64,000 bases of DNA from Vulcanimicrobiota bacterium (GTDB lineage: Bacteria > Vulcanimicrobiota > Xenobia > Xenobiales > JADMJV01): positions 14,510 through 78,509 of the forward strand of contig JBJHCR010000001.1 in NCBI GenBank assembly GCA_050486105.1, written 5' to 3'. Position 1 is the stretch's first letter; each line of letters opens with the position of its first letter. The translations under genes were made by a program, and so were the position numbers. The notes below the pieces were generated by a model. It searched no databases and was not told the DNA's origin. It was given only the letters and a program-made list of their open reading frames with translations. Positions 36,705 to 40,447 of this stretch are shown one piece after another.

Positions 36705-37985
36705 GTGGTAACTAGAGTTCTCCTGGGATTTTTCGCTCTTCTCTCATTCAATCAAGCCATGGCCGAGCCCATCGAGGTCTTGGTGAGGACCTTTCCACCT
36801 GGAGCGACTCTCAGGGATCAGTACAACAATCATCTTGGTCGGAGCGGTGAGCCGGTTTTGCTCGAATGGACTCGAGAGCAGGGGATATTGCAGCTTCAGA
36901 TCTCTTTGCCTGGTCATAAATCGGTCACTCGCAGTGTAAGCTATCGGGAATTGATATCGGGGGTGTATCCCGAGGACGGACCCATCAGGTTGCCTGCTGA
37001 GAATCCTGGGGTGGCGCTGGCCGACATCTTAAAGCATAAAACGGCTGAGGTTTTAGGGCTGTCCCTAGCTCTCTTGGTGTTTGGAGCCTTCTGGTCAGTC
37101 AAGTTGAGAGCAAGAAGGAAGTCTACTCCGAAGAGGTTTCAAAAAGTGGGTTCCTATCTGCTCGAGGAGCGAATCGGTGCCGGAGCCACCGCAGAGGTTT
37201 TCCGAGCCGTATCCGAGTCGGACTCCGGCGCCCTCCCGGTTGCCTTGAAGCTGATGCAAGGAAGCAGCTTAGATGGACTGAGCAGAGAGAGATTCGAGCG
37301 AGAGATCCGAACTTCATTGTCTTTGAAGCACCCCAACCTAGCTCAACTCTATGATTGGGGTCAGACCGATGAAGGTGGCCTATACCTGGTCACCGAGTAT
37401 CTCTCTGGTCACACCTTGCGAGAGCAGCTGAAGAAAAATGAACTCTTGGATTTGGCCTTGGTCAGCCGCGTGGTCAGCGCTGTTGCTGAGGCGCTCTCGT
37501 ACCTCCATTCTCAAGGGGTTATACACCGGGATGTGAAGCCTGACAACATCTTCTTGACCGACGACGGAGAGGTTCGACTCATCGATCTTGGCATTTCTTG
37601 GCGCCACGATGCGGCACCGCTCACCGGACTTGGGATAGCCTTGGGAACCCCTCACTATATGGCTCCCGAACAGATCAACGGTGAAAACGGTCCCGCCTCA
37701 GACCAGTACGCCCTAGCGGTGACCGCGTTCGAGCTGCTCACCGGCAACCGACCTTTTCAGGCGGCAGAGGGGCTTGAGATTTTGCAGAAACACCTCAAAA
37801 ACCCAATTCCCAAGGTCAGCATGCACCGAGATCTTGGTCCCCTGATTGATGACATCCTGGCCCAAGGTATGGCGAAGAATCCGGAGTCTCGCTTTCCTAA
37901 CGTGCGATCCTTTTCGGACTCTCTGTGCCGCCATCTTTCTCAAGGGGATGATGAGAATCTCGATACGGCAGCCGTGGTGACCTGA
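36705..37985 (+). CDS. Receptor-type Hanks Ser/Thr protein kinase: signal peptide, ~100-aa extracytoplasmic domain, TM helix, then a C-terminal cytoplasmic kinase domain
   Basis: Gly loop IGAGATAEV, catalytic Lys in VALK, HRDVKPDNIF, DLG and GTPHYMAPE. The TM helix is LGLSLALLVFGAFWSV, followed by an RARRK stop-transfer. GTG start. Confidence 0.85.
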   Translation: MVTRVLLGFFALLSFNQAMAEPIEVLVRTFPPGATLRDQYNNHLGRSGEPVLLEWTREQGILQLQISLPGHKSVTRSVSYRELISGVYPEDGPIRLPAENPGVALADILKHKTAEVLGLSLALLVFGAFWSVKLRARRKSTPKRFQKVGSYLLEERIGAGATAEVFRAVSESDSGALPVALKLMQGSSLDGLSRERFEREIRTSLSLKHPNLAQLYDWGQTDEGGLYLVTEYLSGHTLREQLKKNELLDLALVSRVVSAVAEALSYLHSQGVIHRDVKPDNIFLTDDGEVRLIDLGISWRHDAAPLTGLGIALGTPHYMAPEQINGENGPASDQYALAVTAFELLTGNRPFQAAEGLEILQKHLKNPIPKVSMHRDLGPLIDDILAQGMAKNPESRFPNVRSFSDSLCRHLSQGDDENLDTAAVVT

Positions 37986-38012
37986 TTCCTGACTCTTGGT
38001 CCAGGACTCTCT

Positions 38013-39413
38013 GTGGAGCGCTTCGAAAACCCGTTCAGCATTATGCAAGAAGATTTGGCCACAGAGAACATCGAAGTCGAGGGCTTGGAGTTGGCCCATA
38101 ATCACCTAGAGCTGCGCGTGGTGCAGAAGGGCCAGAGGGAGTTCCGAATCCCGTTTTTCTCCCGAGAGATGATACTCTCAGAGCAAATCCCCGACCTTTC
38201 TGGTTTGGGTGCGACCTGCAGGGTCGAATTGGAACTCGAGCGGGTCACCATCGTTTGGGGCGAGAACCGAGAGCGGCACCAGCTGACTCCGGGAGATAGC
38301 CTGGTTCTTGAAGACTGCAGAATATGGTTGGTCGATGTCCGCCAACCGCCGTTGGCAGAGATCGAGGGCATCACGCCTCCCTTTGTTGGTCGGGTTTGGC
38401 ACCTCAAGGGGCAGATGGCCTGGTTGGGCAGAGCTGGCAAGCGTCTGAATCACCTGGAGTTGAACCATCCCACGGTATCTCGGACTCACGCCACCTTCAC
38501 TCCGGACCAGACTGGCAGGCTCTCTCTTCTGGCCGAGTCGCCGGCCAGCCCCACCTCGGTGAACGGAGAGCCGATTCCGGCAGGAGAAACTCGCCTACTC
38601 ACCCACGGTGACTTGCTTGGTTTCGGAAAAGTGATGTTGAGATTTTCAAGTCGGCACGCTGCAGGCCCTGAGGCCAATAGGCTTTACGTGCAGACTCTCA
38701 AACACCTGAAGATTCAGGTAGGTGGCTATGACGGCCCCGCTGTGGAGATCAAGAACGAGAAGGCTCTGTGGCTTTTCGCGCTTCTCGCCTGCACCTGGGG
38801 AGAGCCCCAGCCGGTCGAACCCTTGATGGAGACTTTTTGGCCTGAGGTGTCGGCGATCAGAGGTCGCAAGAATTTGTCCTATTCGGTGGGCCAACTCAAG
38901 GAGGCTTTCAAAGAGGTCCCTTTGGACTTCACCGAACTCTTGCTCCGGACTTCGGCGAGTCTCTCCCTGGCGGACACTTATTTGGGTGAGCACGACTACC
39001 TGGAAGTTCACAGGCTCGTTTCCTCTGGAGAGGCAATAACCTCGGAATCGGGTTTGGACCGACTATTGAGGCTCTACCAGGGGGCATTCTTGCCGGCTTG
39101 CTACGAAGAGTGGGCAGAAGTGAAGCGAACTCAGCTGGCCTCTCTGGTTAACAGGTGCCTTGAGGAAACGGGACGCCTTCACCTTCGGTTGCAGCAGATC
39201 CCTTTGGCCATAAGGGCAGGCGAGAAGTTGTTAGAACTCGATCCGCTTCATTGTCCGGCGGCCGAGATCTTGATGCAGGCCCACCTGGCGCAAGCGAACC
39301 CCGGGAAGGCCATTGAGGTTTACGAGCGAGTGACACGACTTCTCTCTCTCGAGTCGGTGGATCCGCCAGTTGGGCTGCTCAAACACTATCATCGTGCGAA
39401 ATTGGGCATGTGA
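38013..39413 (+). CDS. FHA-domain plus SARP-type (winged-helix DNA-binding plus BTAD) regulator. It is EmbR-like but with the FHA domain N-terminal.
   Basis: FHA: GRAGKRLNHLELNHPTVSRTHATF...SVNGEPI...GDLLGFG. SARP wHTH: LKIQVGGYDGPAVEI...ALWLFALLACTWGEPQPVEPLMETFWPE. BTAD helical repeats run to the C-terminus. Confidence 0.75.
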   Translation: MERFENPFSIMQEDLATENIEVEGLELAHNHLELRVVQKGQREFRIPFFSREMILSEQIPDLSGLGATCRVELELERVTIVWGENRERHQLTPGDSLVLEDCRIWLVDVRQPPLAEIEGITPPFVGRVWHLKGQMAWLGRAGKRLNHLELNHPTVSRTHATFTPDQTGRLSLLAESPASPTSVNGEPIPAGETRLLTHGDLLGFGKVMLRFSSRHAAGPEANRLYVQTLKHLKIQVGGYDGPAVEIKNEKALWLFALLACTWGEPQPVEPLMETFWPEVSAIRGRKNLSYSVGQLKEAFKEVPLDFTELLLRTSASLSLADTYLGEHDYLEVHRLVSSGEAITSESGLDRLLRLYQGAFLPACYEEWAEVKRTQLASLVNRCLEETGRLHLRLQQIPLAIRAGEKLLELDPLHCPAAEILMQAHLAQANPGKAIEVYERVTRLLSLESVDPPVGLLKHYHRAKLGM

Positions 39414-40447
39414 GACAGAATTCCGAAGCCCTCTCAAATCCTTCGGTCGCATTTCGGTCTCTTTCGACTCTGGTGTCTTCTGGGGTACCGATTCACGAGT
39501 CGCTGCTTTTGTTGTCGTCTTCGGCTCACCAAGAAGGTGAGAGGACTCTTTTTGAAAACTTGGCCTCGAGAGTCGCTGCCGGTCGAACTCTGTCGGCAAG
39601 TTTCGGTCTTTATCCCCATGTCTTTTCCAGCTACATCGTGGGACTCATAAGAATGGGAGAACAGACGGGCGCTCTGGCTCAGGTTTTAGAGACGATCTCC
39701 ACTCACGCGGAAAAATCTGCGGCGTTGAGAATGAAACTCAGGAGTGCGACCATCTATCCAGGAATACTCACTCTTGGCTCCCTGCTCTTGATGCTGATCG
39801 GACCTCCGTACCTTCTTCAGGGTCACTTGACTATGCTCAGCCAATCAGGGACCGAGTTACCTTGGTCAACTCGCGCATTGATCGGCTGGAATGGAGTGCT
39901 TAGATCCCCGTTTTTCGTTCTCGGAGCCTTGCTGGTCTCAGTCGGCTTGGTTCTGGTGCTAGGTGACCGGGGTCGCAGAAGAGGCCTGTGGCTGTGGTTG
40001 CACCGAGTCCCCATTCTTGAGGCGCTCTTGAAGCAAATGGCGACGGCTAGATTCTGCCAGGGCTTAGAGGTGGCTTTGAAGGCCGGCATGCCAGTTATTC
40101 AGGCTCTTCCTCTGGTAGCTTTCGCCTCCAACGACCCATTGCTGGAAGAGCGAATTTCGGTGGCCACGCAAAGGCTTGCCCACGGTGAGTCGGTGAGCCG
40201 ATCTCTGGCCGCGATGGATTTCTTTCAATCTGGATTCGCTTCTCTTCTCGAAAGCGGGGAAGAAGCAGGAAAGCTTCCTTTAGCCTTGGGGACCTTAGCC
40301 CATTTCGCCGAAATGCACCTGGATGCCACCCTTGAACGTTTCACGACGCTGATTGAGCCGGTGATCTTGCTCTTTATGGGTGCAGTGACAGCCGCAGTCC
40401 TGGTGGCGACTCTTACTCCCACCATCACCATATTACAGACTCTCTAG
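39410..40447 (+). CDS. GspF/PilC/TadC-family type II secretion / type IV pilus platform protein (T2SSF domain)
   Basis: T2SSF-like segments (LSTLVSSGVPIHESLLLLS..., FCQGLEVALKAGMPVIQALPLVA...) with 3-4 TM helices. GTG start overlaps the FHA gene stop (atGTGa). Confidence 0.7.
   Translation: MRQNSEALSNPSVAFRSLSTLVSSGVPIHESLLLLSSSAHQEGERTLFENLASRVAAGRTLSASFGLYPHVFSSYIVGLIRMGEQTGALAQVLETISTHAEKSAALRMKLRSATIYPGILTLGSLLLMLIGPPYLLQGHLTMLSQSGTELPWSTRALIGWNGVLRSPFFVLGALLVSVGLVLVLGDRGRRRGLWLWLHRVPILEALLKQMATARFCQGLEVALKAGMPVIQALPLVAFASNDPLLEERISVATQRLAHGESVSRSLAAMDFFQSGFASLLESGEEAGKLPLALGTLAHFAEMHLDATLERFTTLIEPVILLFMGAVTAAVLVATLTPTITILQTL

Follow-up and report, generated by a model that had tools for sequence, protein, structure and literature searches.

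What could a membrane Ser/Thr kinase, a transcription regulator carrying a phosphothreonine-binding domain and a platform protein of the type IV filament class do together in one bacterial locus? The question is raised by a 64-kb stretch of DNA (hereafter, the window) from an uncultured soil-type bacterium (Eremiobacterota, class Xenobia). Three tightly packed open reading frames (ORFs) on its plus strand, at 36705–40447, encode a kinase with receptor-like topology, an FHA-SARP regulator and a GspF/PilC-family protein with T2SSF domains (Table 1). An earlier note on this DNA had suggested phospho-dependent transcriptional control of a secretion or pilus platform. In our opinion, it is fairly probable that these genes form a lineage-specific one-kinase, one-regulator module of Eremiobacterota/Vulcanimicrobiota (Xenobia), with a small regulon centred on an orphan platform of a type IV filament similar to type IV pili or type II secretion systems.

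The kinase and regulator genes are separated by 27 nt, and the TGA stop of the regulator overlaps the GTG start of the T2SSF gene in ATGTGA at 39408–39413, just as the earlier note had described. A terminator scan gave only weak terminator-like matches; these fell inside coding sequences, and the intervals between the genes had none. The three genes may plausibly form a single operon, and the T2SSF gene of the window appears to be co-transcribed and translationally coupled with the regulator gene rather than provided with an operator of its own. The four Pfam families proposed earlier for profiling these genes (Pkinase, FHA, BTAD and T2SSF) were all matched in the expected proteins. For comparison, related loci were taken as ~20-kb stretches (±10 kb), labelled L001, L002 etc.; gene tables covered L001–L003 and L019–L022, and 385 kb of sequence was the base for the statistics of cis-elements.

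Kinase with a Receptor-Like Topology

The kinase domain is matched by Pfam Pkinase (PF00069) with E 3.9e-45 and 154.7 bits against a cut-off of 31.7, and its closest solved structures are PknA, StkP, PknE and PknB. The catalytic motifs GxGxxxxV, K182, H274-R275-D276, N281, D294-L-G296 and APE are invariant in 17 sequences; all the features defining Hanks-type Ser/Thr kinases (a Pkinase match above the threshold, the Lys, HRD, DFG/DLG and APE) are present. A signal peptide of the n/h/c type ends in an AxA-like cleavage site (MVTRVLLGFFALLSFNQAMA↓EP) and is followed by an ectodomain of ~80 amino acid residues (aa) with a transthyretin/PEGA-like beta-sandwich, a transmembrane helix and the basic stop-transfer stretch KLRARRKS. 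The order of signal peptide, ectodomain, transmembrane helix and C-terminal catalytic domain given by the earlier note is borne out by Pfam and by ortholog conservation.

The N-terminal region is shared by ~15 orthologs, in which E21-P22 is nearly invariant after the AxA-like site, and the GTG start at 36705 is supported by this conservation. In the NCBI gene call (P0023), the protein has 408 aa and begins with ATG at 36759, 18 codons later; the database start codon probably removes the signal peptide.

The PknB-type order (N-terminal kinase, transmembrane helix, C-terminal sensor) is absent, and the protein is therefore not of the PknB type; the NCBIfam model PknB_PASTA_kin reaches 210 bits against a cut-off of 450 and covers the kinase part alone. 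Among the best 120 homologs, by our own count, on which any statement of rarity rests, 66 have the kinase before the transmembrane helix and 25 after it, and 21 of these 25 are the closest relatives. In kinases inside other related modules, the kinase domain likewise begins at residues 144–183. We take the receptor-like topology as real because of the ortholog-wide N-terminal region, these homolog counts and the domain starts in other modules; it is rare among homologs of the kinase in general and typical of this lineage. The inversion relative to PknB-type kinases noticed earlier thus holds as a matter of topology, but not as a peculiarity of one protein. A literature search on bacterial Hanks kinases with an N-terminal ectodomain brought up only plant and animal receptor kinases.

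A D-T-x-A motif containing T421 is conserved at the C-terminal end of the kinase orthologs, and T421 is a second candidate docking site for the FHA domain of the regulator. Neither a second kinase nor an extra FHA domain was found in the window by tblastn or Pfam.

Regulator Combining FHA and SARP Units

In the regulator, Pfam detects FHA at residues 138–205 (E 2e-8) and BTAD at 343–453 (E 1.4e-9). A profile of the regulator family aligns residues 217–317 to the EmbR winged helix (residues 7–104, E 4.6e-5), and Trans_reg_C is detected by Pfam in the distant family members P0172 and P0210. In the AlphaFold model (mean predicted local distance difference test score, pLDDT, 81.7), an OmpR-type winged helix-turn-helix (wHTH) directly precedes BTAD, which is the arrangement that defines SARP regulators. 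The top Foldseek match to this model is the SARP domain of AfsR in a transcription complex (8hvr_I, E 3.5e-10), followed by EmbR (2ff4, 2fez), and many FHA domains, including those of DgcB and GarA, rank lower in the list. The identification of FHA, SARP wHTH and BTAD made in the earlier note is in agreement with all these results.

The phosphothreonine-binding residues of FHA (G139-R140, S156-R157 and N184-G185) are invariant (alignment A1). As in EmbR, an FHA domain with an intact phosphothreonine pocket is found in the same chain as the SARP unit, and the permuted order claimed by the earlier note is confirmed: N-domain, FHA, wHTH and BTAD here, against wHTH, BTAD and C-terminal FHA in EmbR. 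The alignment of the profile with EmbR is confined to wHTH and is not collinear over the whole protein. Because of its domain order, the regulator is placed outside the EmbR architecture. Upstream of the FHA domain, T17 is invariant in 21 sequences within the motif ATENV (A-T-E-N-V/I), in a segment with pLDDT <50.

A word-indexed search gave 22 full-length relatives of the regulator with 41–60% identity, and an exhaustive profile search roughly 50–60 cluster representatives with the FHA-then-SARP layout. All named members of this family belong to Vulcanimicrobiota or Eremiobacteraeota.

Conserved Linkage and Domain Fusions

The regulator, the kinase, T2SSF and homologs of three pilin-like proteins of the window (pp538, pp134 and pp196) co-occur in L001–L004, L006, L007, L011, L013 and L019–L022, and their order and orientation vary from locus to locus. 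Identity of the regulator to that of the window goes down to 41–45% and that of T2SSF is lower, the overall protein range being 41–60%. Upstream of the module, L021 is also syntenic with the window (LptFG, AidB-like dehydrogenase, DUF3084, RuvX and a beta-propeller gene).

In paralogous proteins of three loci, the N-domain and FHA module are fused to a soluble cytoplasmic Pkinase (L007, 3299–4780; L008, 9761–11263; L009, 8712–10190). The fusions in L007 and L008 were confirmed by Pfam too and contain no SARP part; a pp538-like gene directly follows the fusion in L008, and in L007 one adjoins it on the opposite strand. A joint function of these genes is concluded mainly from the linkage, which outlasts rearrangement, and from the domain fusion.

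L019 contains two copies of the three-gene pilin-like set, at 4782–7172 (−) and 13244–15817 (+), and three predicted SARP boxes.

Predicted SARP Boxes and Their Candidate Target Genes

The exact nonamer ATTCCGAAT occurs in 3 copies in the window. The repeats are arranged as two tandem pairs, each with a period of 11 bp, at 36564–36582 and 29668–29686, both intergenic; one pair consists of two exact copies and the other of ATTCCGAAT and a one-mismatch copy, GTTCCGAAT. On the minus strand, both read ATTCGGAAT-N2-ATTCGGAA(T/C), then 9 nt and a −10-like hexamer; the core form is TCGGAA-N5-TCGGAA, 10 nt and the hexamer TAnnnT. A −35 consensus is absent at the usual distance in either window promoter, and the proximal repeat sits in its place. 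According to the published rule for SARP promoters, direct repeats lie 11 or 22 bp apart, and the 3′ repeat is 8 bp from the −10 element (PMC10936776). The window repeats follow this layout and are predicted operators.

Allowing ≤1 mismatch, TCGGAA-N5-TCGGAA was found 11 times in 385 kb, against 2.0 ± 1.1 in shuffled sequences. Nine of these 11 cores are intergenic and adjoin the module, and in 8 of the 9 the hexamer exactly 10 nt downstream has T at position 6, a property for which the sites had not been chosen. Six further sites with 2 mismatches and TAnnnT all lie in module-bearing loci, and in 10 loci besides that of the window the motif adjoins the module. As none of the first 10 loci contains the window box as an exact 19-mer, the relaxed core was used instead. 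The boxes are oriented toward a nearby gene start at every site except one in L006. From most sites, the regulator gene is no more than ~2 kb away, and several are found at most 60 bp from its start, a proximity that suggests autoregulation.

Besides the two boxes, a position-weight-matrix scan, including the regions upstream of the kinase operon, of the pseudopilin operon and of the 392-aa membrane protein gene downstream of T2SSF, gave no site in the window. A degenerate GCGGxx repeat upstream of the latter gene was discounted, being without the −10 geometry.

Both window boxes face minus-strand genes and point away from the kinase operon. The 114-aa protein encoded downstream of box 2 has no Pfam family; its two near-identical 75-nt tandem repeats, in 36200–36350 (−), encode GPFKMADPEKYPDYKPAENGRIGTP, and its homolog with the CHPDSQCPxC motif is also boxed, in L019 at 15911. 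Boxed proteins of L019 and L011 likewise end in short tandem peptide repeats. In L001 and L007, it is the T2SSF gene that lies directly downstream of a box. Other boxed genes are those of a homologous family of 200–245 aa in L011, L019 and L020 and an ORF of 85 aa that is situated, on the opposite strand, between the kinase and regulator genes, at 4730–5129 (−) in L004 and at 7665–8061 (−) in L022. L004 and L022 are nearly identical in nucleotides around this ORF and also beyond it, and the region may represent a non-coding RNA. For the transcriptional control of the platform suggested by the earlier note, linkage in at least 12 loci and the repeats upstream of T2SSF in L001 and L007 speak in favour, whereas the repeats of the window itself, which point away from the operon, do not bear it out.

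Platform Protein and Pilin-Like Genes

Two T2SSF stretches (PF00482, E 2.2e-40) were found in the platform protein by Pfam, its residues 14–340 align end to end to Myxococcus xanthus PilC (3jc8, E 8e-36), and inspection of the translation reveals three hydrophobic helices; it has the two T2SSF repeats and the polytopic inner-membrane character of such platforms. Orthologs are 49–54% identical over the full length. The possibility that this ORF is a pseudogene remnant, which the earlier note had considered as a refutation, was ruled out by the full-length Pfam, ortholog and PilC alignments. All NCBIfam equivalogs score below their cut-offs (GspF 190/424, PilC 160/700, HofC 149/401 and ComGB 117/240). 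Judging by these alignments and scores, the platform protein is intact, yet not assignable to the GspF, PilC, HofC or ComGB system. In the 20-kb loci examined, its gene is never beside that of a T2SSE-family ATPase.

Three pilin-like genes lie upstream of the kinase operon, on its strand. Linkage of a pp538 homolog to the module was found in at least 12 loci, one such homolog adjoining the FHA-kinase fusion in L008, and the protein has no Pfam, NCBIfam or PDB sequence match. Class III signal peptides are present in pp134 and pp196, and pp538 is without Glu5. The motif G↓(F/L)(T/S)(L/I/M)xE is kept in most pp134 homologs, one of which has A for G, and pp134 shows weak NCBIfam matches to Verru_Chthon cassette protein B (E 0.003) and PilV (E 0.014). 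The signal motif of pp196 is conserved in its homologs; weak NCBIfam matches are XpsI, ComGG and HpsC. Pfam N_methyl gave faint or weak matches, and on pilin-like homologs only.

The 392-aa membrane protein is a possible member of the module, with no predicted box upstream and no family match. It has in common with the boxed family of 200–245 aa (L011 ~10010 (−), L019 ~13047 (−), L020 ~9796 (−)) a D(S/T)V(E/T)L(G/N) motif 30–40 residues from the N-terminus, preceded by a polar-rich stretch and without a Pfam match. A FlgM-like reading of these proteins, made from D(S/T)VELG, was dropped in view of no Pfam match to FlgM or any other family.

Table 1. Genes and predicted regulatory elements of the module and its surroundings in the window.
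Feature	Position	Strand	Details
Boxed gene, 374-aa protein, no recognisable family	28507–29631	−	Box 1 directly upstream of the ORF
Predicted SARP box 1 and promoter	29652–29686	−	ATTCGGAAT-gg-ATTCGGAAC, 9 nt, TACACT (29652–29657), AGGAGG ribosome-binding site, ATG 29631
Large prepilin-like protein (pp538), 538 aa	33567–35183	+	RG↓FSAGG and hydrophobic helix, no Glu at +5 (GspK-like feature)
Minor-pilin-like protein (pp134), 134 aa	35168–35572	+	Class III signal G↓FSLGE
Minor-pilin-like protein (pp196), 196 aa	35550–36140	+	Class III signal G↓LTLAE
Boxed gene, 114-aa protein	36161–36505	−	KPIxCHPDSQCPxC motif, two 25-aa tandem repeats; box 2 upstream of the ribosome-binding site and ORF
Predicted SARP box 2 and promoter	36548–36582	−	ATTCGGAAT-cg-ATTCGGAAT, 9 nt, TATGAT (36548–36553), GAGGAGA ribosome-binding site, ATG 36505
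Type-I membrane Hanks Ser/Thr kinase, 426 aa	36705–37985	+	Signal peptide aa 1–20, ectodomain aa 22–97, transmembrane helix aa 115–132, kinase aa 153–397, tail T421
FHA-SARP regulator, 466 aa	38013–39413	+	Disordered N-tail with T17, beta domain 29–108, FHA 115–213, OmpR/SARP winged helix 224–327, BTAD 328–463
Short-form GspF/PilC-family platform protein, 345 aa	39410–40447	+	T2SSF ×2, three hydrophobic helices; Pfam, PilC alignment, orthologs
Membrane protein, 392 aa, possible module member	40712–41890	+	DSVELG motif ~36 aa from the N-terminus

Proposed Circuit and Alternatives

The proposed module is built on observations of domain content, residue conservation, linkage and fusions, and of a cis-element with its geometry and enrichment. 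Its mode of action may be outlined as follows. An envelope cue sensed by the ectodomain would activate the kinase, and the FHA domain of the regulator would dock on a phosphothreonine of the kinase, either in the activation loop (T307 or T315) or in the tail (T421). The kinase would phosphorylate the regulator, most likely on the invariant T17 of the disordered N-tail, and a contact between phosphorylated T17 and FHA, in trans or in cis, would switch on or dimerise the regulator. As a side-by-side dimer, the latter could occupy the two direct repeats over the missing −35 element and recruit RNA polymerase in an AfsR-like manner. The regulon would consist of small neighbouring genes and of T2SSF, whose gene carries a box in some genomes; the window targets would be the genes of the 114-aa and 374-aa proteins. 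Together with the minor pilins, the platform may prime or assemble a filament, for which the ATPase, prepilin peptidase and major pilin would be needed from elsewhere.

Several points weigh against this scheme. The steps that we infer are phosphotransfer and its acceptor site, the binding of DNA by the regulator, the direction of regulation and the output through the platform. Pfam Trans_reg_C does not match the window regulator itself, and no PP2C phosphatase was found in the window by tblastn or Pfam. Genes for a GspE/PilB ATPase, a prepilin peptidase, a secretin and a major pilin are absent from the window and from the called genes of the seven loci covered by gene tables. The window boxes precede neither the kinase/FHA-SARP/T2SSF operon nor the pseudopilin genes, and the two genes which they do precede are without any known function; the 374-aa protein has no Pfam or NCBIfam match and no homolog in related loci. 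The loci used for counting the motif set had also served, in part, to define it, and to refine it, and L003, L005, L014 and L021 have no box at the thresholds used. Finally, in L006, at 15279–15295 (−), a perfect TCGGAA-N5-TCGGAA followed by TACATT faces the 3′ end of the kinase gene with no clear ORF downstream; this box may give rise to a small RNA or an antisense transcript.

FHA proteins also work without transcription: Fha1 and PpkA control the Pseudomonas H1 type VI secretion system (H1-T6SS) post-translationally, and YscD and GltG carry FHA domains. By analogy, the kinase and the FHA-SARP protein might act mainly post-translationally, with FHA and the TPR-like BTAD forming a scaffold on which phosphorylated platform or pilin parts dock, and with transcription secondary or absent. 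The constant position of T2SSF beside the kinase and FHA genes and never beside its ATPase, the translational coupling of the regulator and T2SSF in the window, the neighbourhood of SARP-less FHA-kinase fusions and pp538-like genes, and the weak similarity of the regulator FHA to YscD and GltG would all fit such a scaffold. We nevertheless consider it unlikely: the conserved wHTH-BTAD unit corresponds to that of DNA-bound AfsR and of EmbR, and the module comes with a directional element of direct repeats, arranged as in a promoter, of which some sites are upstream of T2SSF.

An explanation that we find improbable to about the same degree leaves the regulator its transcriptional role and assigns the TCGGAA repeats to another transcription factor, for example a dimeric HTH protein reading the near-palindrome ATTC-C-GAAT, or to a lineage-specific repeat, the targets of FHA-SARP lying elsewhere. 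Indeed, each 9-mer of the window is a near-palindrome with 4-bp arms, the boxed genes differ between genomes, and binding of the regulator to the repeats is a prediction. The palindromic arms are, however, lost in L001, L002, L006 and L019, and the palindrome of ATTCCGAAT was rejected as a conserved feature because other loci retain the direct TCGGAA repeat alone. The period, the orientation and the distance to the −10 hexamer are constant, the distance from the sites to the FHA-SARP gene is mostly no more than ~2 kb, which would be expected of a cluster-situated SARP, and the gene tables (L001–L003, L019–L022) contain no other DNA-binding protein conserved in the module.

Least of all do we believe that the adjacency is meaningless, with kinase and regulator serving as a general envelope-stress pair beside a decayed pilus locus, as the lack of essential filament parts in the window and the many paralogous kinases and FHA proteins in Xenobia genomes might suggest, for the linkage outlasts extensive rearrangement across lineages at only 41–45% protein identity, the T2SSF and pilin-like genes are intact and conserved, and boxes stand upstream of T2SSF in two genomes.

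Transcriptional control by the kinase-regulator module remains our preferred reading. A more far-reaching version of it is put forward tentatively, as we doubt that all its parts hold: Xenobia and other Eremiobacterota would possess a eukaryote-style chain from a receptor kinase to a SARP activator with a fused phosphothreonine reader, in which phospho-dependent dimerisation between FHA and the tail would load two protomers on the operator with the 11-bp period and so control a new class of type IV filaments, unlinked to an ATPase (T2SSF and a tip set of three proteins), as well as its small cargo or partner proteins. If true, this would mean that a SARP regulon with a defined operator exists outside Actinobacteria and that Ser/Thr phosphorylation controls a filament system at the level of transcription.

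Other Features of the Window

The G+C content of the window is uniform, at ~0.55. The presence of LptC, LptB, LptFG, SLH-domain proteins, DUF3084, Uma2 and two SecA paralogs among its genes suggests that the host is a diderm bacterium.

The SecA genes, at 24944–28510 (+) and 42488–45163 (+), flank the module. One encodes a canonical protein of 891 aa and the other an unusually long protein of 1188 aa with an N-terminal extension of ~200 aa and a large insertion in the DEAD domain, where Pfam SecA_DEAD spans residues 207–663; over 274 aa, these paralogs share 44% identity. The ORF 29755–33486 (+), which directly precedes the pilin-like genes, encodes a protein of 1243 aa that contains an annexin repeat (PF00191, E 1.3e-8) and has no homolog in related loci; to our knowledge, annexin repeats are uncommon in bacteria. 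Three genes of putative endonucleases belong to the Uma2 family (PF05685), at 23696–24823 (+), 45176–45778 (−) and 63198–63746 (−). This family is abundant in cyanobacteria.

A classical +1 programmed frameshift site, CTTTGAC, of prfB (release factor 2) is located at 46048, upstream of the ORF 46085–47119. Rfam and tRNA scans of the window gave no relevant match. ARAGORN placed a tRNA-Asp with the anticodon ATC at 52484–52578 (−), inside the ORF of an SLH-domain protein, and this call is probably a false positive, since Rfam gives it no support. Among the related loci, L022 contains a CRISPR-Cas locus (Cas8b, Cas3-like helicase and a Cas4-Cas1 fusion) at 12637–19473 (−), ~2 kb downstream of T2SSF.

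Comparison with Known Systems

Compared with known systems, the module represents a variant of signalling of the PknH-EmbR and AfsK-AfsR kind that is confined to one phylum and connected with an orphan platform of a type IV filament. Like PknH-EmbR of Mycobacterium tuberculosis, it joins a membrane Hanks kinase to a regulator composed of an OmpR-type winged helix, BTAD and FHA, and the likeness of the fold to EmbR (2FEZ, 2FF4) is expressed in a Foldseek E of 7e-9 beside the wHTH profile match. The regulator differs from EmbR in the permuted order and the extra beta domain, with identity of ~19%. PknB-type kinases such as PknH have the kinase first and the sensor last; in the window kinase, the sensor is N-terminal and outside and the kinase C-terminal. 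The phylum is also different, and the linked output is a type IV filament platform with pilin-like genes, not arabinosyltransferases.

The SARP unit finds its best structural match in the AfsK-AfsR system and small SARPs of Streptomyces (8HVR, 8K60), with a TM-score of 0.69 on the target. As in Streptomyces SARPs, the predicted operator consists of two direct repeats one helical turn apart, which overlap the −35 region, with the 3′ repeat at a distance of 8–9 bp to the −10 element, and, as in AfsK-AfsR, the system is cluster-situated with a Ser/Thr kinase upstream. Unlike AfsR, the window regulator has no NOD or TPR domains and has an FHA reader built in. The repeats of Streptomyces SARPs are heptamers of the TCGAG type; here the core is TCGGAA, the targets are not antibiotic clusters and the host is not an actinobacterium.

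The T17 tail appears, by analogy, to resemble the phospho-acceptor tails of GarA, OdhI and Bdellovibrio DgcB, with a disordered N-terminal stretch and an invariant Thr upstream of FHA, and the DgcB FHA (6hc0, 6hc1) is among the best sequence and fold matches to the regulator. In contrast to these proteins, the output domain here is a SARP DNA-binding unit, and binding of phosphorylated T17 may mean autoinhibition in cis or dimerisation in trans. With PpkA-Fha1 of the H1-T6SS of P. aeruginosa, the module shares a membrane Ser/Thr kinase and an FHA protein within the locus of an envelope-spanning machine, but that pathway acts post-translationally on the T6SS and its FHA protein is without a DNA-binding domain; PpkA has the usual N-terminal kinase. 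Like GspF, PilC and ComGB, the platform protein has two T2SSF domains and three hydrophobic helices. It is without the ~65-aa N-terminal extension and hence similar to ComGB in length.

Summarizing these comparisons, it may be said that the logic of Ser/Thr kinase, FHA and SARP, known from the actinobacterial PknH-EmbR and AfsK-AfsR, is met here in a barely studied phylum. Its special features are the receptor topology of the kinase, the permuted regulator, the predicted SARP operator outside Actinobacteria and the tie to a platform unlinked to its ATPase. A connection of Hanks-kinase signalling with a type IV filament platform away from its ATPase may indicate an undescribed variant of filaments or secretion. 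A readable predicted operator with few candidate targets is unusual, and the circuit can be tested cheaply, on two 20-bp sites, without cultivation.

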